A stretch of 11,469 bases of DNA from a virus (lineage: Duplodnaviria > Heunggongvirae > Uroviricota > Caudoviricetes): IMG/VR virus record IMGVR_UViG_2695420644_000002; one strand, given 5' to 3'. A program made the position numbers and the translations under genes. Under the pieces are notes generated by a model. It did no database searches, had not been told where the DNA came from, and saw nothing but the letters and a program-made list of their open reading frames with translations. Shown piece after piece: positions 3,040 to 10,861 of the stretch; position 1 is the stretch's first letter, and every line of letters begins with the position of its first letter.

Positions 3040-3691
3040 GATTGGCCTGCGTTCAAAAATAAAATGGCATAGCGGGATATGCCGCGAGCGGGCGATTTTA
3101 GGTGATTTTGTGATCTGTTTAAATGTTTTATTGCAATCGGTTGCTAAATTGCATTTTAAGAGTGGTGCCTCCAGGTGACGTTAACCAGTTAACAATTAAC
3201 GCCGGATACAGAGAATCCACCCATAACACTGTTTTTGGTTTTAACTGTTCCGCGTGCGCTCAGCCGCATTCACCACATCACAAAATTCACTTTAAAAAGG
3301 GCGGCAGAGCAGTCACGGAGTAAAACTGATACCGCCAAACGTCACCAGAAAATTGATAACAGAGGGCGTTGCAGCGGGGTTGTCACTTAAGCGTATGGTC
3401 AACCTGACAACCCGGTGTCCTCAACGGGGAANGNNTAACCCCGCCATACTTACCGCCGCGCCATTTCGCGGGTTGCCACAACCGGAAGCGCACGGTCGAC
3501 GAAAATTTAACGACAGGCTATCTATGAACCAGCTACCTCGCCGTGCGCTTTCGCGTTATGGTCTGACTTTTCAGGGAAATATCCTTTCAGTAAACTGTCA
3601 GTTCCGGATGCGCACCCGTGTCCGGCGCACGCACTCCACCTCACCCGTGGAGAACTCCTTAATTACTAACCTTAGCTTTGTTGATTAGCTA

Positions 3692-3910
3692 CTAACGCGG
3701 GTATGTAATCATTCTGGCAATGCTTAATGCCGCTGCTTTTTCCAGATTGGTGATATCCTGCTCCAGAGCGGACAGATTTTCAGCCTGCTTAGCCCTGGCT
3801 TCATTAGCCCATTTCAGATCCTGCGCTGCATTAATTTTCTGGCGCATCCACTCATAAAGTTCATCATCGGTATAGTCTGGCGCGATGATGACGGGTTCTC
3901 GTTTCTGCAT
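3692..3910 (-). CDS. Hypothetical prophage small protein (72 aa), predicted helical C-terminal half
   Basis: ATG at 3910 preceded by GAGGAA 7 nt upstream; product MQKREPVIIAPDYTDDELYEWMRQKINAAQDLKWANEARAKQAENLSALEQDITNLEKAAALSIARMITYPR. Last gene of a leftward three-gene string downstream of the repressor. Function not recognised; a size similarity to Rac KilR (73 aa) is only a coincidence-level hint. Confidence 0.55.
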   Translation of the reverse strand: MQKREPVIIAPDYTDDELYEWMRQKINAAQDLKWANEARAKQAENLSALEQDITNLEKAAALSIARMITYPR

Positions 3911-3939
3911 ACTGATTCCTCGCGGTGCTGTTTCGCTTA

Positions 3940-4068
3940 TCAGCCGTTAGATTTTGCCGAACTGGAAAGCGCCTGTTTAAACTCACTGAAGCTGAGAGCT
4001 TCTTCGCCTTCGGCAAGGCCTTCGAAGTATTCTTCGTAAGCCTTTTCCATGATTGTGTCGAAATCCAT
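3940..4068 (-). CDS. Hypothetical prophage small acidic protein (42 aa)
   Basis: Not in the supplied ORF track (below its length cutoff). ATG at 4068 with AGGTGAG 6-7 nt upstream and TGA at 3940-3942; product MDFDTIMEKAYEEYFEGLAEGEEALSFSEFKQALSSSAKSNG (10 acidic vs 3 basic residues). Starts 1 nt after the stop of the upstream ORF. Confidence 0.45.
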   Translation of the reverse strand: MDFDTIMEKAYEEYFEGLAEGEEALSFSEFKQALSSSAKSNG

Positions 4069-4069
4069 A

Positions 4070-4225
4070 TCACTCACCTGAGTTTCTTTCCAGCCAGCGA
4101 CGGGCACCATTTTCGGTTTTAAACGTTTTGCTTTTGGTATACGTCATTGCGGTGAACGTGCCGTCCTGGTTTGGAAACACGCCGTACACCAGAGATTCGT
4201 TGTTGCCAAGATCGATAGTATCCAT
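4070..4225 (-). CDS. Hypothetical prophage small protein (51 aa), Rac ydaF/ydaG-neighbourhood type
   Basis: Likely start is the ATG at 4225 with GAGG 5-8 nt upstream, giving MDTIDLGNNESLVYGVFPNQDGTFTAMTYTKSKTFKTENGARRWLERNSGE. The track ORF 4070..4303 begins at a TTG and is probably an over-extension. Confidence 0.5.
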   Translation of the reverse strand: MDTIDLGNNESLVYGVFPNQDGTFTAMTYTKSKTFKTENGARRWLERNSGE

Positions 4226-4303
4226 GCTGACCTCATTTCCCCTTAACGCTGGGGTAGCGGAACTGTTTGCTGAGAACACCGTGCGGTGTGTTGATGCAAA
4301 CAA

Positions 4304-4400
4304 GATTAGCCATGACTAACATATCGGTCAAGTGATTTTGTATGCTATAGCTAACATAATTGATGTGGTAAAAGATAACTCATTGATGATGTTATCTTTT
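4304..4400. promoter_or_regulatory. Operator/promoter-like region between the repressor gene and the leftward small ORFs (OL/PL-like), with a 10-bp inverted repeat over the repressor stop codon
   Basis: ATGACTAACA at 4312-4321 recurs at 4858-4867 on the other side of the repressor; GATTAGC at 4304-4310; TAGCTAACA at 4348-4356. Perfect inverted repeat AAAAGATAAC (4370-4379) / GTTATCTTTT (4391-4400) with an 11-nt loop. Possible leftward -35 TTGACC (minus strand, 4331..4326) and weak -10 TAATCT (4308..4303). Confidence 0.35.
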
Positions 4401-4799
4401 ATTTGTCCGCTGACGGGCTTTTAGTAATTCTTCAAAGAGTTTATTGAAGTTTTTTACTCGAGCTCGCATTTCGGCGAGCTGGGTATCCTGTTCTGATTCT
4501 GGCAGTGCATTAAACAGCTCAAGGAGCTCTAGTTCTTTGGGGGATAAGGCAACTGGCTTCTCAACAGGTGGTGTTGGTTGCTTGTCTTCATCGCCAAATA
4601 GAATCCATGTTGGTGAGCATTGCAATACTTTGCTGAGGGCAAAAAGGTTCTTCCCTGTAGGTTCACTATCACCCCGTTCCCATTGTGATACAGACACATG
4701 GGAGATTTTCAGGGCTTTAGCAAGAGACCTTTGGGTGTGTTTGAGGTTTTTCCGACGATACCTGATGCGTTCGCCGATAGTTAAATTTTTTGTTTCCAT
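4392..4799 (-). CDS. Prophage repressor, HTH XRE/cI-like (RacR-like), no peptidase domain
   Basis: 135-aa product METKNLTIGERIRYRRKNLKHTQRSLAKALKISHVSVSQWERGDSEPTGKNLFALSKVLQCSPTWILFGDE... shows the classic phage-repressor HTH signature (Q-x-x-V-S-x-WE-x-G...L-x-C-S-P-x-W-I/L). Divergent from a Cro-like gene across an 83-bp intergenic region containing palindromes. Confidence 0.8.
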   Translation of the reverse strand: METKNLTIGERIRYRRKNLKHTQRSLAKALKISHVSVSQWERGDSEPTGKNLFALSKVLQCSPTWILFGDEDKQPTPPVEKPVALSPKELELLELFNALPESEQDTQLAEMRARVKNFNKLFEELLKARQRTNKR

Positions 4800-4882
4800 A
4801 GTTAGCTAATGCTAAATCGTATTGACTATGTTTTTGTTAACATCTATCTTGTTAGTTATGACTAACAATAAAGGTGTTTTAA
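4800..4882. promoter_or_regulatory. Divergent promoter/operator region between the repressor and the Cro-like gene (OR-like)
   Basis: Candidate rightward sigma70 promoter: -35 TTGACT 4822-4827, 17-bp spacer, -10 TATCTT 4845-4850, then AAGGTG 6 nt before the ATG at 4883. Perfect inverted repeat TTGTTAG-N6-CTAACAA at 4849-4868 overlaps the -10. Palindrome TTAGCTAA at 4802-4809 abuts the repressor start codon. Confidence 0.5.
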
Positions 4883-5113
4883 ATGCTTAAAACTGACGCT
4901 CTTTTGTATTTCGGTTCAAAAACAAAACTTGCACAAGCAGCAGGTATTCGTTTGGCTTCGCTTTATAGCTGGAAAGGGGATTTAGTTCCCGAAGGTCGCG
5001 CGATGCGTCTACAGGAGGCATCTGGCGGGGAGCTTCAGTATGATCCCAAAGTTTATGATGAATATCGTAAGACGAAGCGGGCGGGGCGGTTGAACAATGA
5101 AAATCACTCCTGA
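4883..5113 (+). CDS. YdaS-family Cro-like HTH protein
   Basis: 76-aa product MLKTDALLYFGSKTKLAQAAGIRLASLYSWKGDLVPEGRAMRLQEASGGELQYDPKVY... fits the YdaS/Cro-like pattern (KLA..G.....L..W......P...A..L......GG.L). First rightward gene opposite the repressor, with an AAGGTG RBS. Confidence 0.65.
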   Translation: MLKTDALLYFGSKTKLAQAAGIRLASLYSWKGDLVPEGRAMRLQEASGGELQYDPKVYDEYRKTKRAGRLNNENHS

Positions 5114-5618
5114 ACAGGCTCGTGAGGCTCTGGATGCCTGGATATGTCGACCAGGAATGACACAGGAGCAGGCGACGATATTAATCACTGAAGCATTCTG
5201 GGCTTTGAAAGAGCGCCCGAACATCGATGTTCAGCGTGTCACATATGAAGGTGGCGCGATTGATCAGCGAGCGCTTGGCGTTAATCGAGTGAAGATATTT
5301 GAACGCTGGAAGGCTATCGACACCAGGGATAAGCGTGAAAAGTTCACGGCGCTAGTGCCTGCAATTATGGAGGCTATCCGGATTAATGATTTCAGGTTGT
5401 ATCGTGAAATTACTGACGGAAAAAGCATCACGTGCATGATCGCCGGGTTAAACAAAGAATATGGCGATGTGGTGGAGTCCGGACTGCTTTTTGCTGATCC
5501 TGCCGTAGTGGATCGTGAAACTGACGAACTTATAGAAAAAGCAATTGCTTTCAAACTTGCGTATCGACAGCAATACCAACAAAAAGCTGGATGGAATTAT
5601 GAGCCTTCTTTTTGCTGA
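5097..5618 (+). CDS. YdaT-family protein (prophage cII-position regulator, reported toxic on ectopic expression in Rac)
   Basis: 173-aa product MKITPEQAREALDAWICRPGMTQEQATILITEAF...VKIFERWKAIDTRDKREKFTALVPAIMEAI... aligns with my recollection of K-12 YdaT (MKI...W..P.G...KIF.RW....LLPAI). Overlaps the preceding gene by 17 nt and the next by 20 nt. Confidence 0.6.
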   Translation: MKITPEQAREALDAWICRPGMTQEQATILITEAFWALKERPNIDVQRVTYEGGAIDQRALGVNRVKIFERWKAIDTRDKREKFTALVPAIMEAIRINDFRLYREITDGKSITCMIAGLNKEYGDVVESGLLFADPAVVDRETDELIEKAIAFKLAYRQQYQQKAGWNYEPSFC

Positions 5619-6203
5619 ACGCCCACTGGTTATAAACACGCAGCTGGCAATGAAAATTGGCTTAAACGAAGCCATTGTTTTGCAACAACTGCACTACTGG
5701 TTGAGAGATACCAACTCCGGCATGGAATGTGATGGTGTTCGCTGGATTTATAACACAACGGAACAATGGCTGGAACAGTTCCCATTCTGGTCAGAGTCAA
5801 CGTTAAAGCGCGCGTTTGCAAGTCTGAAAACGCTGGGGCTTTTGCGTTGTGAAAAGCTCAATAAATCAAAGCGCGATATGACCAATTTCTACACGATCAA
5901 CTATGGGAGCGAGCTTTTAGATGGTGGCAAATTGAGCGAATCCATCGGTTCAAAATGCGCCGCTCCATCAGGTCAAAATGACACGATGGAAGAGGTCAAA
6001 ATGAAACGCTCCATTGGTTCAAAACGACCCAATGTCATCGGGTCAAAATGGCCTGATGATCTTACAGAGAATACAACAGAGATTACTACAGAGAATAAAA
6101 ACACTTTTCGTCCGGAAGCTTCGCAACCGGACCCGCAGACGACTGAACAGGATTTTTTAACCCGGAACTCCGACGCGGTTGTGTTTAGTGCGAAAAAACG
6201 CCA
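5599..6203 (+). CDS. Lambda O-like replication initiator (Rac ydaU position), 3'-truncated at N 6204
   Basis: Probable start ATG 5599: MSLLFAERPLVINTQLAMKIGLNEAIVLQQLHYWLRDTNSG...LKTLGLLRCEK..., an N-terminal winged-helix-like domain followed by a low-complexity linker encoded by the iteron array (repeated IGSK motifs). The track ORF starts further upstream at 5545. The frame continues into unrelated terminase sequence after the N at 6204. Confidence 0.6.
5941..6099. repeat. Iteron array: five direct repeats at 23-24 bp spacing plus three 12-bp repeats (candidate prophage replication origin inside the O-like gene)
   Basis: Core TCAAAATG at 5950-5957, 5973-5980, 5996-6003 and 6043-6050, with variant TCAAAACG at 6019-6026; unit consensus about tccatcGGTyCAAAATGac. 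Followed by ACAGAGA(A/T)TA repeats at 6064, 6076 and 6088 in a 68% AT stretch. Confidence 0.6.
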
Positions 6204-6205
6204 NA

Positions 6206-6592
6206 GGGGCATCCGTCTACGGAAAGCCTGTGGCCAGCATGCCACGTAAGCGAAACAAAAACGGGGTTTACCTTACCGAAATTGGTACGGATACCGCGAA
6301 AGAGCAGATTTATAACCGCTTCACACTGACGCCGGAAGGGGATGAACCGCTTCCCGGTGCCGTTCACTTCCCGAATAACCCGGATATTTTTGATCTGACC
6401 GAAGCGCAGCAGCTGACTGCTGAAGAGCAGGTCGAAAAATGGGTGGATGGCAGGAAAAAAATACTGTGGGACAGCAAAAAGCGACGCAATGAGGCGCTCG
6501 ACTGCTTCGTTTATGCGCTGGCGGCGCTGCGCATCAGTATTTCCCGCTGGCAGCTGGATCTCAGTGCACTGCTGGCGAGCCTGCAGGAAGAG
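6206..6592 (+). CDS. Lambda-type terminase large subunit (gpA-like), C-terminal fragment
   Basis: Translation ...KPVASMPRKRNKNGVYLTEIGTDTAKEQIYNRFTLTPEGDEPLPGAVHFPNNPDIFDLTEAQQLTAEEQVEKWVDGRKKILWDSKKRRNEALDCFVYALAALRISISRWQLDLSALLASLQEE matches the C-terminal region of phage lambda terminase large subunit as I recall it. Bounded by N at 6204 and NN at 6594-6595, so it lacks both its N-terminal ATPase part and its last ~25 codons. Confidence 0.8.
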
Positions 6593-6595
6593 ANN

Positions 6596-7255: not shown

Positions 7256-7258
7256 NGT

Positions 7259-7873
7259 TGCGCCGTAGCCCTGTACCACGTTCAGCACGCCCGCCGGAAT
7301 ACCGGCTTCCAGCGCCAGCTCACCCAGGCGGTCAGCGGTCAGCGGGGAGAGTTCTGACATCTTCAGCACCGCAGTATTGCCCAGCGCAAGACACGGCGCG
7401 ACCTTCCATGTGGCGGTCATAAACGGCACGTTCCACGGCGATACCAGCGCACAAACGCCTACCGGTTGCACCAGCGTGTAGTTGAGCATCTTGTCGTCAA
7501 CCGGATAGGTCTTGCCGTTCATCTGCTGGCAGACTTCCGCGAAAAATTCAAAGTTGTGAGAAGCGCGTGGGATCAACACATTTTTGGTCTGATGGATCGG
7601 CAGGCCCGTGTCCGCGGTTTCCATCGCGGCGATCTCAGGCACGTTCTGGTCGATCAGATCGCCCAGACGGCGCATCAGGCGCGCACGCTCTTTCATCGGC
7701 AGATTGGCCCATTTCGGGAACGCCTCTTTCGCTGCCGCTACCGCCTGATTGATCTCCGCTTCACCGCCAGAGGCCACATCCGCCAGCACTTCACCCGTCG
7801 CCGGATTGGTGGTCTGGAAGTAGTCGTTACCTGCAACATTTTTGCCGTTGATCCAATGATTTACTTTTTTCAT
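7259..7873 (-). CDS. hpaE: 5-carboxymethyl-2-hydroxymuconate semialdehyde dehydrogenase HpaE, N-terminal ~205 codons (3'-truncated at N 7256)
   Basis: Translation MKKVNHWINGKNVAGNDYFQTTNPATGEVLADVASGGEAEINQAVAAAKEAFPKWANLPMKERARLMRRLGDLIDQNVPEIAAMETADTGLPIHQTKNV...VVQGYGA matches HpaE of the E. coli 4-hydroxyphenylacetate meta-cleavage operon. GAGGAA RBS; start ATG overlaps the hpaG stop (ATGA at 7870-7873). Confidence 0.9.
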
Positions 7874-9159
7874 TTCGCTGTTTCCTCACTCACAATTCGG
7901 TTCACCAGGCAGCCCACGCCTTCTACTTCCACCACTACTTCATCGCCAGGCACCACGTCAGATAAGCCTTTTGGTGTGCCGGTGGCGATCATGTCGCCCG
8001 GATTCAGGGTCATAAATTCGCTTAAGTAGGCGATCAGGAAGGGCACGCTGAAGATCAGATCGGCGGTGGTGCCTTGCTGGCGTAACTCGCCGTTGACGAA
8101 GGTGCGAAGGGTCAGATTATGCGGGTCCGGGATCGCCTCTTTCGGCACGATGGTTGAAAGCATCGGCGTCAGTCCGTCGCGGCTTTTTACCCGCAGGTTA
8201 GGGCGGTAGTAGTTTTCCAGATAGTCGCGAATGGCGTAGTCGTTACACACGGTGTAGCCCGCGACATAATCCATGGCATCGGCTTCGCTGACGTTACGCG
8301 CCTGTTTGCCAATAACTACCACCAGCTCCGCTTCATAGTGCATGTATTCAATATTGTTTGGACGCACGGAGGTCTGGTTATCGCCAGTGAGGGTATTTGG
8401 CGCTTTCAGGAACACCAGCGGTTCTTCCGGTGGCTTAAATTCCAGTTCGCTGGCGTGGTCGGCGTAGTTCAGGCCGAGGGCAAACAGCGTGCCGTGCGGG
8501 TGTGGCTGCGTTGGGAAGCTCTTGCGCGTGGTCACTTCACGTTCGTCCACTACCGGATTTTCCAGCGGCGGGAAACCTTCTGCGAGAACACGAACGCGAT
8601 CGCCTGGCTGTATTTCCACGCGCGCCTGTGGCGTGCCGAGCAGAATGGCATCGCCTGGATTCAGTGTGGCAAATTCGCTCAGGGCGCTCAGCAACTGCGC
8701 GGCGTTACGTTGTAAATCGGCGGTATTCCAGTGATCGGCAGGACGCCCGTTGATCTCGGTATAGATGGTCAGATTATCGACATTGCTGAGAGCCACGGTT
8801 TCGCCAATGGGGCAGAATCCATCACGACATTTTGCTTTGATTGCCGGGCGGTAAAAGCTCTCTTCCGGCAGGCTGACGTCGTTAGCCAGCGCATATCCGG
8901 CGATGTACTCTGCCGCATCTTCTTCACGTACTTTCGTCGCCGTTTTTCCCACAATCAGCGCAACAGTCGCACCGCTCAGTACCTTTTCACCCTGTGGAAA
9001 GGGAATCGGTTCACCGCAACCAATCACCGTATTGCGCGGTTTAATAAACCAGACCGCAGTTTTAGGCGGGGCTTTGTAGGGGGATTGCTGGAACGCTTCC
9101 TGCCATGCATCAAGTTGGCTGCGATGGTTCAACGCTACGGCGAAGATAGTGCCTTTCAT
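7870..9159 (-). CDS. hpaG: Bifunctional 2-oxo-hept-3-ene-1,7-dioate isomerase / 5-carboxymethyl-2-oxo-hex-3-ene-1,7-dioate decarboxylase HpaG (complete, 429 aa)
   Basis: Translation MKGTIFAVALNHRSQLDAWQEAFQQSPYKAPPKTAVWFIKPRNTVIGCGEPIPFPQGEKVLSGATVALIVGK... with two FAH-like repeats. ATG at 9159 has GAGGAG 5 nt upstream; the track ORF adds two codons from a GTG at 9165. Length matches HpaG. Confidence 0.9.
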   Translation of the reverse strand: MKGTIFAVALNHRSQLDAWQEAFQQSPYKAPPKTAVWFIKPRNTVIGCGEPIPFPQGEKVLSGATVALIVGKTATKVREEDAAEYIAGYALANDVSLPEESFYRPAIKAKCRDGFCPIGETVALSNVDNLTIYTEINGRPADHWNTADLQRNAAQLLSALSEFATLNPGDAILLGTPQARVEIQPGDRVRVLAEGFPPLENPVVDEREVTTRKSFPTQPHPHGTLFALGLNYADHASELEFKPPEEPLVFLKAPNTLTGDNQTSVRPNNIEYMHYEAELVVVIGKQARNVSEADAMDYVAGYTVCNDYAIRDYLENYYRPNLRVKSRDGLTPMLSTIVPKEAIPDPHNLTLRTFVNGELRQQGTTADLIFSVPFLIAYLSEFMTLNPGDMIATGTPKGLSDVVPGDEVVVEVEGVGCLVNRIVSEETAK

Positions 9160-9430
9160 TACCACTCCTCGGATTCGATCATCTTAATCATTAATATGTT
9201 AATGATTACTTTTATTCCCGATTGCGTAGTTTGGCAAAAGTAAGTGATGTAAATGTGATCTAATTAACAAACTATTTACATTTAAGGATAATAAAATATT
9301 AAATATCAGTAAGTTAATAAAATATCATCAATTTTGATAAAATCAGGAATTGCAGGGGCAGCGCAGTCCCGGTAACGTGACGATTAACTGTTTCTATATT
9401 AATGATTTTGAATTTTTCAGGGGAAAGATA
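9160..9430. promoter_or_regulatory. hpaG-hpaR divergent control region: HpaR operator-like palindrome, CRP-like site, AT-rich tract
   Basis: Perfect inverted repeat TAATCATTAA-TATG-TTAATGATTA at 9185-9208 just upstream of hpaG. CRP-like TGTGA-N6-TAACA at 9254-9269 (one mismatch to TGTGA-N6-TCACA). The whole region is strongly AT-rich. Confidence 0.55.
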
Positions 9431-9877
9431 ATGCACGACTCACTAACCATTGCGTTGCTCCAGGCGCGAGAAGCGGCGATGAGTTATTTTCGCCCAATCG
9501 TTAAACGGCATAATTTGACTGAGCAACAGTGGCGCATCGTGCGTATTCTGGCGGAAAGCCCATCAATGGATTTTCACGATCTGGCGTATCGCGCCTGCAT
9601 TTTGCGCCCAAGCCTGACCGGGATCCTCACGCGGATGGAACGCGACGGTTTAGTGTTGCGATTAAAGCCGATCAATGATCAGCGGAAGCTCTATATCTCG
9701 CTGACCAAAGAGGGGCAGGCGCTGTATAACCGCGCCCAGACACAGATTGAAGAAGCCTATCGGCAGATTGAAGCTCAGTTTACTGCCGAGAAAATGCAAC
9801 AGTTAACCCATCTGCTAGAGGAATTTATTGCTCTGGGTAATTCCCGACAAGAAGACATCCCGGGCGATAATGAATAA
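9431..9877 (+). CDS. hpaR: MarR-family repressor HpaR of the homoprotocatechuate (hpa) meta operon (complete, 148 aa)
   Basis: Translation MHDSLTIALLQAREAAMSYFRPIVKRHNLTEQQWRIVRILAESPSMDFHDLAYRACILRPSLTGILTRMERDGLVLRLKPINDQRKLYISLTKEGQALYNRAQ..., a MarR-type winged helix, divergent from hpaG. ATG at 9431 preceded by AGGGGAAAG; the track ORF starting at 9350 is an upstream over-extension. Confidence 0.9.
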   Translation: MHDSLTIALLQAREAAMSYFRPIVKRHNLTEQQWRIVRILAESPSMDFHDLAYRACILRPSLTGILTRMERDGLVLRLKPINDQRKLYISLTKEGQALYNRAQTQIEEAYRQIEAQFTAEKMQQLTHLLEEFIALGNSRQEDIPGDNE

Positions 9878-9904
9878 CTTTTTAGTATCTGATAACCAGC
9901 GCNT

Positions 9905-10861
9905 GAAACATGGCATTACGACTTCCATCATCGGCGCGGAGTGATTGTTGAAGGCGGCAAGATGAGTAACCTTGATGCGATGGATATTACCGCGCCGTAT
10001 ACGCCTGGAGCGCTGCGCGGCGGCAGCCATGTGCATGTCTTTAGCCCGAACGGTGAAAGGGTGAGCTTTACCTATAACGACCATGTAATGCATCAACTCG
10101 ATCCGGCGCTGGATTTGCGAAACGTCGGTGTTGCTGCACCGTTTGGCCCGGTCAATGTACAAAAGCAGCATCCGCGTGAGTACAGTGGTAGCCACTGGTG
10201 CGTGCTGGTGAGTAAAACCACGCCCACGCCGCAGCCAGGCAGTGATGAAATCAATCGTGCTTATGAAGAAGGATGGGTAGGAAATCACACGCTGGCGTTT
10301 ATTGGCGACACACTTTCGCCAAAGGGCGAGAAAGTGCCGGAGCTGTTTATCGTTGAGTTACCGCAAGATGAAGCTGGCTGGAAAGCGGCAGGTGATGCGC
10401 CGTTAAGTGGAACGGAAACCACCCTGCCCGCGCCACCGCGCGGCGTCGTGCAGCGACGTTTAACCTTTACCCACCATCGGGCTTATCCGGGGTTAGTCAA
10501 CGTCCCGCGCCACTGGGTGCGCTGTAATCCGCAGGGTACGCAAATCGCGTTTTTAATGCGTGATGATAACGGCATTGTGCAACTATGGCTTATCTCGCCA
10601 CAGGGCGGCGAGCCGCGCCAGTTAACCCATAACAAAACGGATATTCAGTCTGCATTTAACTGGCATCCATCAGGAGAATGGTTGGGCTTTGTGCTGGATA
10701 ATCGAATTGCTTGTGCCCATGCGCAAAGCGGCGAGGTTGAGTATTTAACCGAAAACCACGCCAATCCGCCTTCTGCGGATGCCGTGGTCTTCTCACCGGA
10801 TGGTCAATGGCTGGCGTGGATGGAAGGTGGCCAGCTGTGGATCACCGAAACTGATCGCTAA
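9905..10861 (+). CDS. yidR: YidR-like DUF3748 beta-propeller protein, 5'-truncated at N 9903
   Basis: Frame is open from 9896 through the N with no plausible start until the internal GTG at 9941 or ATG at 9962. Translation ETWHYDFHHRRGVIVEGGKMSNLDAMDITAPYTPGALRGGSHVHVFSPNGERVSFTYNDH...GQWLAWMEGGQLWITETDR; convergent with yidQ. The yidR symbol is from memory of the K-12 yidQ neighbourhood. Confidence 0.6.
   Translation, partial: ETWHYDFHHRRGVIVEGGKMSNLDAMDITAPYTPGALRGGSHVHVFSPNGERVSFTYNDHVMHQLDPALDLRNVGVAAPFGPVNVQKQHPREYSGSHWCVLVSKTTPTPQPGSDEINRAYEEGWVGNHTLAFIGDTLSPKGEKVPELFIVELPQDEAGWKAAGDAPLSGTETTLPAPPRGVVQRRLTFTHHRAYPGLVNVPRHWVRCNPQGTQIAFLMRDDNGIVQLWLISPQGGEPRQLTHNKTDIQSAFNWHPSGEWLGFVLDNRIACAHAQSGEVEYLTENHANPPSADAVVFSPDGQWLAWMEGGQLWITETDR

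Follow-up and report, generated by a model that had tools for sequence, protein, structure and literature searches.

Does a repeat array inside a coding sequence serve the encoded protein or the DNA itself? This question is raised by an O-like replication initiator gene in an 11,469-nt stretch of virus DNA (IMG/VR record IMGVR_UViG_2695420644_000002; the whole stretch is referred to as the window), in which 23-bp direct repeats (iterons) are followed by three 12-bp repeats of the form ACAGAGAnTAC (12-mers). An earlier note on this DNA, made from its letters alone, had proposed that the array is a prophage origin. It is concluded here, with a probability of about 0.8, that positions 5920–6132 of the window are the replication origin of a lambdoid prophage of the Qin/mEp460 type, located in the part of a single initiator gene that codes for a disordered linker.

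The pattern GKTCAAAAYG was found five times in the window (at 5948, 5971, 5994, 6017 and 6041), where 0.21 occurrences were expected, and none of 200 shuffled sequences reached five. A repeat search returned the same number of iteron copies with spacings of 23, 23, 23 and 24 bp, and Tandem Repeats Finder reported a period of 23 at 5941–6014 and a period of 12 at 6064–6097. Both the TCAAAAYG cores at 5950, 5973, 5996, 6019 and 6043 and the 12-bp repeats at 6064, 6076 and 6088, as read in that note, were confirmed exactly and lie far above chance, and the repeated IGSK peptide motif that it had described occurs three times in the translation. Each iteron spans 23 bp and is internally dyad-symmetric. 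The copies are iteron 1 (CATCGGTTCAAAATGCGCCGCTC, 5943–5965), iteron 2 (CATCAGGTCAAAATGACACGATG, 5966–5988), iteron 3 (GAAGAGGTCAAAATGAAACGCTC, 5989–6011), iteron 4 (CATTGGTTCAAAACGACCCAATG, 6012–6034) and iteron 5 (CATCGGGTCAAAATGGCCTGATG, 6036–6058), of which iterons 2, 4 and 5 are self-complementary at 16 of 23 positions. A degenerate copy, iteron 0 (core GGCAAATTG, ∼5920–5942), lies in register one period upstream, with a match of 67% and a dyad at 12 of 23 positions; its counterpart is clearer in a Klebsiella phage relative (L005). There are five iterons, and with the degenerate copy probably six.

The first 12-mer starts 5 bp after the last iteron. ACAGAGAWTA occurs three times in the window, where 0.01 occurrences were expected, and the three units (ACAGAGAATACA, ACAGAGATTACT and ACAGAGAATAAA; 6064–6099, plus strand) form a block of 36 bp, presumed to be a repeat-type DNA unwinding element. 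The AT-enriched stretch that had been noticed at this place was recovered, with a G+C content (GC) down to 0.35 at 6050–6109, and the 12-mer block is the least stable 36-bp segment inside the gene (−39.8 kcal/mol, compared to a mean of −48.8 with a standard deviation of 3.7). Between the last iteron and the 12-mers a GATC (Dam site, 6058–6061) could be read from the sequence. Of 47 sampled initiator genes, 19 have GATC directly before the array, and many enterobacterial versions read GATCTT, GATCCT or GATCAT followed by ACAGAGA. On the 3′ side of the 12-mers lies an inverted repeat with 6-bp arms, GTCCGG-N11-CCGGAC (6110–6132), which by its position appears to be the counterpart of GTCAGAG...CTCTGAC in lambda and may have a corresponding function.

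The gene that contains these elements runs on the plus strand from 5599 to 6209 and represents the 5′ two-thirds (residues 1–203) of an initiator that in its intact form has 321 residues (L001:7200–8165, in E. coli ATCC 8739) and matches PHROG 391, ‘replication initiation O-like’, at 1e-91. The intact protein's C-terminal domain (residues 147–294), which is absent from the window copy, is 34% identical to lambda O (E 1e-26), and this alignment pairs the 12-mers with the AT-rich region of lambda and GTCCGG...CCGGAC with the lambda inverted repeat. The repeats encode residues 108–178, almost wholly within a linker (residues 86–174) that is predicted to be disordered by AlphaFold2, with predicted local distance difference test (pLDDT) values of 24–44. 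The N-terminal domain (5599–5913, plus strand), presumed to bind the iterons, is winged-helix-like in the AlphaFold2 model, with helices and strands over residues 14–78; the quality of this model is modest (pLDDT 57–74 for the N-terminal and 66–84 for the C-terminal domain). Its best Foldseek matches were the N-terminal domains of RepA_N initiators (4pql and 4pt7, E 0.05–0.17), followed by winged-helix regulators, all of them weak. In 10 representative initiators (L002–L095), sub-threshold Pfam matches of the N-terminal domain, also weak, were to the winged-helix families GntR, HTH_36 and TFIIE_alpha, and in none of the 11 initiators scanned did Pfam give a significant match for this domain. 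A relative is found in the Staphylococcus aureus phage vB_SauS_fPfSau02 (L003:1490–1620), where a DnaD-like protein has an N-terminal domain 42% identical to that of the E. coli prophage (E 8e-31), and the same GGTCAAAATG iterons come next, with unchanged spacing. In this match between E. coli and S. aureus phages, an initiator and its predicted binding site have been conserved together across phyla.

The last 20 residues of the intact initiator (QRCVNHISEPDTEIPPGFRG, L001:8103–8162) agree at 14 of 20 positions with the E. coli DnaT C-terminus (SEPDxxIPPGFRG). This similarity suggests that the tail mimics the restart primosome protein and so could recruit DnaB/DnaC without a phage loader. A P/DnaC-like gene had been expected downstream of the initiator, but the next gene in intact copies is DUF977/Ren-like (LygF): this was observed in ATCC 8739 and in the complete phages mEp460_ev081 and PhiR42_1, and no P, DnaC or DnaB homologue was found downstream of the initiator in these three. 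In the genomes of mEp460_ev081 and PhiR42_1 the same module is present at 97–100% identity and contains the only replication gene.

The 12-mer extends far beyond this phage family: a scan of IMG/VR with ACAGAGAWTACWACAGAGA returned at least 120 loci. Among the matches listed, the motif lies almost always directly 3′ of an iteron array, and the iterons that precede it belong to many unrelated sequence families. GTDB genomes likewise gave at least 120 motif matches; 76 of the 120 listed lie in genes of the same N-domain superfamily, and their hosts include Gamma-, Beta- and Alphaproteobacteria, Desulfuromonas, Smithella, many Bacillota, Chloroflexota, a cyanobacterium, Fibrobacterota and Gracilibacteria. 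Among isolated phages, the native 61-nt segment matches 104 records (phages of Acinetobacter, Staphylococcus, Bacillus and Klebsiella, Stx phages and others), and the functionally annotated matches listed are nearly all replication-initiation, DnaD-like or primosomal genes, with three labelled transcriptional regulator. In phages of Pseudomonadota, Bacillota, Chloroflexota, Cyanobacteriota, Desulfobacterota-type lineages, Fibrobacterota and Patescibacteria, the 12-mer has stayed nearly the same in every letter while the iterons beside it diverge freely; in the sequences compared, the iteron families that it follows are unrelated, and the phages belong to at least seven phyla. Iteron-like repeats followed by 12-mers were also seen outside long open reading frames, with no recognisable initiator nearby (L226, ∼1600–1790; L271, ∼100–290; L212/L252; L284). 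The arrays in L212, L226, L271 and L284 could be non-coding origins or decayed genes and were not used as evidence. The rep gene of TP901-1, an experimentally studied intragenic origin, was considered as a carrier of the motif and rejected, as its A-rich repeat is another one and ACAGAGA is absent. A literature search found no description of the 12-mer or of the TEITTE peptide, older paywalled literature being outside its reach.

The N-terminal domains of the initiators that carry the motif form one superfamily by single linkage. The parts that follow the motif belong to several unrelated families: the lambda O C-terminal domain, Phg_2220_C, a ‘YSPEFEQAWQEYPKR’ type and a ‘WxDYLKHRKAKR’ type. 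Seeding with the lambda-O-type C-terminal domain recovered only 18 of 120 open reading frames, and therefore the C-terminal domains are diverse; a tie of the 12-mer to one C-terminal family was ruled out by this recovery. In a set of 10 representative initiators (L002–L095), only one C-terminal domain type has a Pfam-A model, Phg_2220_C.

Since the motif stands exactly at the junction between a module of N-terminal domain plus iterons and several C-terminal families, it might be mainly a recombination linker by which origin-specificity (N-terminal) and helicase-recruitment (C-terminal) modules are exchanged, rather than an unwinding element. This explanation is considered unlikely, although it survives better than the others. 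For homologous recombination, 36 bp would be a short length. Position 8 is free while the other positions are fixed, and such a position-specific constraint indicates a code for recognition or structure and not mere identity. In lambda and P22 the corresponding place is taken by the AT-rich part of the origin, as defined by experiment or annotated. The roles of recombination linker and unwinding element are moreover compatible with each other and not mutually exclusive.

The constraint on the iterons was analysed in 18 non-redundant relatives with the same iteron type, using mean pairwise divergence by codon position. At third codon positions, divergence was 0.175 in the iterons compared to 0.388 in the region for the N-terminal domain, whereas at positions 1+2 it was 0.153 compared to 0.091. 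For pairs with an identical amino acid, the synonymous-codon differences dropped from 0.35 in the N-terminal domain to 0.08 in the iterons. This pattern is the signature of selection acting on the nucleotide sequence rather than on the peptide. Conservation of the repeats at the DNA level in homologous O-like genes, on which the earlier note had made its proposal depend, was indeed found.

For the 12-mers, circularity was avoided by scanning with the codon-blind pattern T-E-x-T-T-E-x-T-T-E, after which the matches were classed by protein homology with the repeat region masked. This homology network replaced a sorting by upstream repeats, which had let in low-complexity T/E-rich proteins. In the 47 distinct initiator genes thus obtained, variation in the 12-mer is limited to positions 8 and 12. 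Positions left free by the search are nonetheless fixed: position 3 is A, position 6 is G and position 7 is A in 94 of 94 cases each, and position 9 is T in 91 of 94. Position 8, a second codon position, is A in 28, C in 13, G in 10 and T in 43 cases, so that the encoded residue changes among N, T, S and I. Glutamate in the array is encoded by GAG in all cases (141/141), compared to 418 of 936 (45%) elsewhere in the same genes, and threonine never by ACC (0/248), compared to 27% elsewhere.

In a reverse test, loci were retrieved by similarity to the N-terminal protein domain alone, with a consensus sequence as leading query for diversity. All 58 distinct loci carry dyad-symmetric iterons followed by CAGAGA repeats. 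CAGAGA was counted 144 times in the 330 nt after the N-terminal domain, once in the region coding for that domain and nine times in the next 330 nt. The spacing between copies was 12 nt in 55 cases and 11 nt in 19, and an 11-nt spacing changes the reading frame; in Bacillota phages the first unit often lies 11 nt from the next, with the frame altered. The 12-mer DNA is read as L-Q-R-L-L-Q-R in L231 (Halomonas, motif at 3924) and L264 (motif at 864), and in L208 and L241 frame shifts occur within the array.

These results bear on the explanation that the repeats are only a protein feature, a repetitive linker peptide (IGSK...; TENTTEITTEN) selected for its amino acids, with no role for the DNA. 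The repeats are in frame and encode repeated peptides, and the T-E-x-T reading of the 12-mer is present in 195 of 211 long open reading frames. The codon-position pattern, however, is the reverse of the one such selection would leave, with iteron position 3 as conserved as positions 1+2. In the 12-mers the wobble bases are fixed (only GAG, and only ACA or ACT) while the second codon position changes the residue, the motif persists where it is read in another frame or spaced by 11 nt, disorder is predicted for the segment, and unrelated T/E-rich proteins caught by the codon-blind pattern mostly use GAA (87/110). A purely protein-level role is therefore very improbable, and in both repeat classes the constraint lies on the DNA and not on the protein. 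Equally improbable is that the array is an operator or handcuffing site for autoregulation or copy-number control of the initiator: plasmid iterons do serve autoregulation and handcuffing as well, but these repeats lie in the middle of the gene, 340 nt downstream of the start codon, the stretch 5400–6300 yielded no promoter-like site, and the adjoining low-stability repeat block and inverted repeat fit the anatomy of an origin.

With the origin as the preferred explanation, the observed anatomy, homologies, nucleotide-level constraint and low duplex stability can be read in the following way, in which iteron binding, unwinding and helicase recruitment are modelled on lambda and on iteron plasmids. 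Dimers of the N-terminal winged-helix domain of the initiator would bind the five or six dyad-symmetric 23-bp iterons, which carry A-tracts. The resulting nucleoprotein complex would strain the adjoining 36-bp ACAGAGAnTAC block, which by this analogy is most likely to work as a DNA unwinding element of the repeat type. Host DnaB/DnaC would then be recruited by the lambda-O-like C-terminal domain together with the DnaT-like tail, and this recruitment is proposed to be direct because no phage loader gene is present. The copy in the window could not fire alone, because its gene is truncated at a join.

Lambda provides the closest comparison. In both cases the origin lies within the initiator gene, in the linker between the DNA-binding and the C-terminal domains, and consists of four to six dyad-symmetric iterons of about 18–23 bp with a central TCAAAA A-tract, spaced by ∼20–24 bp, followed on the 3′ side by an A-rich, purine-skewed region of low stability and then by an inverted repeat. 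The C-terminal domain is homologous, and the gene order cI-cro-cII-O is the same. Differences are that the N-terminal domain of the prophage initiator is not detectably related to that of lambda O and that the iteron arms differ. The A-rich part of the prophage consists of three ACAGAGAnTAC 12-mers with exact period, whereas that of lambda reads ACAAAAGACACT...AAAAGAAAAG. The prophage has no P gene, and its initiator ends in the DnaT-like tail. A lambda-like prophage origin in an O-like gene, as proposed earlier, is thus supported in its layout and its C-terminal homology, but not in a lambda-O-type N-terminal domain. Classical origin-defective mutations of lambda include ori95 and ori96. These in-frame deletions of 12 and 15 bp fall in the AT-rich region, and the deleted O complements in trans (PMC6022878). 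The minimal unwinding unit of lambda comprises two iterons and the AT-rich region, and O binds single-stranded AT-rich DNA (PMC7466680).

The P22 origin in gene 18, which is annotated as rep_origin, resembles that of the prophage in that iterons, A-rich short repeats (ACAAAAGACAAT, present twice) and a GC-rich inverted repeat are all intragenic. It differs in having other iterons and another repeat sequence, and P22 has its own DnaB-like helicase (gene 12). Some of the genes that carry the 12-mer have P22-like CCCCCTAACCCCC...GGGGG sequences downstream. The RepA_N initiators of the plasmids pSK41 and pTZ2162 (RepA; PDB 4pql, 4pt7) are the best structural matches to the model of the N-terminal domain, but weak ones (E 0.05); they belong to plasmids, not phages, and no Pfam RepA_N match was found in the prophage initiator. 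In RepA_N plasmid replicons the iterons lie inside the rep coding sequence.

A further comparison is with the 13-mers of oriC and RK2 oriV, which like the 12-mers are tandem repeats of ∼12–13 bp in the least stable DNA beside initiator sites, the latter being predicted in the prophage. The GATC before the first 12-mer recalls the GATC-initiated 13-mers of oriC. The unwinding element of oriC contains repeats, is sequence-specifically required and has one strand bound by the initiator (PMC10797057), and the RK2 oriV repeats are likewise sequence-specifically required, with one strand bound by Rep (PMC10797057; PMC4081077). The 13-mers, however, differ between replicons, whereas the 12-mer is kept across at least seven phyla and beside unrelated iterons. 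Such strict cross-phylum conservation suggests that more than easy melting is selected. One tentative explanation, favoured less than the origin assignment itself, is that the ACAGAGAnTACw repeats are a universal sequence-specific origin element that is read by a conserved partner; this partner could be a single-strand-binding surface common to the superfamily of winged-helix initiators, or else the replicative helicase or the primase of the host. As candidate readers, primase trinucleotides, single-strand motifs of DnaA and the 12-nt footprint of a DnaB hexamer were weighed, and none of them is claimed.

Several points weigh against the assignment of the origin. Conservation reveals a constraint on the DNA, not which function is constrained, and the origin role of this initiator family, comprising binding, unwinding and autonomous replication, is deduced by analogy. 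The N-terminal part has no BLASTP similarity to lambda O and no match to Pfam Phage_rep_O, and the intact initiator has no Pfam match at the curated cut-off and, apart from a match of its C-terminal tail, belongs to no NCBIfam family. Confidence in the structural model is low, and its fold matches, with E values of about 0.05, are weak. The dyads are weak in iterons 0, 1 and 3, the 12-mer block is only moderately A+T-rich (about 30–35% GC), and the window copy of the initiator is truncated.

This truncation has to be seen together with the composition of the window. Runs of N are present at 396–398, 1521–1524, 3432–3435, 6204, 6594–6595, 7256 and 9903, and most of them fall at the borders of blocks whose matches lie in unrelated parts of E. 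coli chromosomes. These blocks include a dapF/lptM block (399–1520), the prophage block (3163–6209) and an hpa operon block (7257–9905). The window looks like a set of concatenated or misassembled fragments rather than a natural contiguous stretch, and gene truncations at its N-marked joins should not be taken as biology. The initiator gene is identical to the intact copies up to 6209 and then runs into foreign sequence: the join to unrelated DNA lies at 6204–6212, with an N at 6204, and downstream of it a lambda-type terminase large-subunit fragment (∼6239–6592, plus strand; PHROG 15, 1e-49) stands isolated between two joins. Because the break is located at an N-marked join, it is most likely an assembly or concatenation join and not a biological deletion.

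E. coli ATCC 8739 (L001) matches the prophage block at 99.8% identity, and its annotated order there is dicB, ydfC, ydfB, ydfA, dicA, dicC, a YdaT-family gene and a ‘hypothetical protein’ of 321 residues. In the window, the CI-like repressor gene dicA (4392–4799, minus strand) matches L001:5993–6400 and the Cro-like gene dicC (4883–5113, plus strand) matches L001:6484–6714, both annotated as such. They are followed by a YdaT-family or CII-like activator gene (5097–5618, plus strand; Pfam YdaT_toxin; PHROG 163, CII-like activator, 5.5e-40), which overlaps the start of the initiator gene by 20 nt. Since this upstream gene is CII-like, the gene order CI-like, Cro-like, CII-like and initiator is as in lambda. 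The DicF small RNA was identified at 3299–3350 on the minus strand (Rfam RF00039, 76.7 bits). Because of DicF and the dicA, dicC and ydfA-C annotations, block 3163–6209 is, by gene content, a Qin-type prophage and not Rac.

The identity with the Rac origin oriJ that had been considered was therefore not upheld. Both are E. coli prophage origins near a repressor and YdaT-like region, but oriJ belongs to another prophage, and K-12 Rac (racR-ydaS-ydaT-ydaU-ydaV) has only 66 bp in common with the block and contains not a single iteron or 12-mer core. The Qin prophage of K-12 MG1655 matches the window over 3163–5376 at 99.8% identity, and this match ends inside the YdaT-like/CII-like gene, of which ydfX of K-12 is a remnant. 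It follows that the initiator gene and the repeats were lost from K-12 Qin; many other E. coli strains have kept them. A match covering at least 80% of a query that spans the origin region was present in ∼1,700 of 5,426 complete E. coli genomes.

That a lambdoid prophage carries an iteron origin within a gene is textbook knowledge; the Qin-type origin is an uncharacterised member of this kind, with a different N-terminal domain and no loader gene. The analysis assigns the origin to the Qin/mEp460 family of lambdoid prophages, thereby correcting the attribution to Rac, and describes the module of this family as a putative one-gene replicon without a phage loader. As a compact DNA signature, the 12-mer marks the putative unwinding side in the intragenic origins of phage initiators that form a very large superfamily. 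If a conserved reader of the 12-mer exists, the repeats would be a phage counterpart of the DnaA-trios or the RK2 13-mers, yet one that is conserved across phyla, and they would serve as a sequence tag by which origins could be located in thousands of uncharacterised phages. If the 12-mer is recognised sequence-specifically, the way in which iteron-type initiators select the adjacent DNA, open it and pass it on to the helicase would become approachable through one sequence in many hosts.

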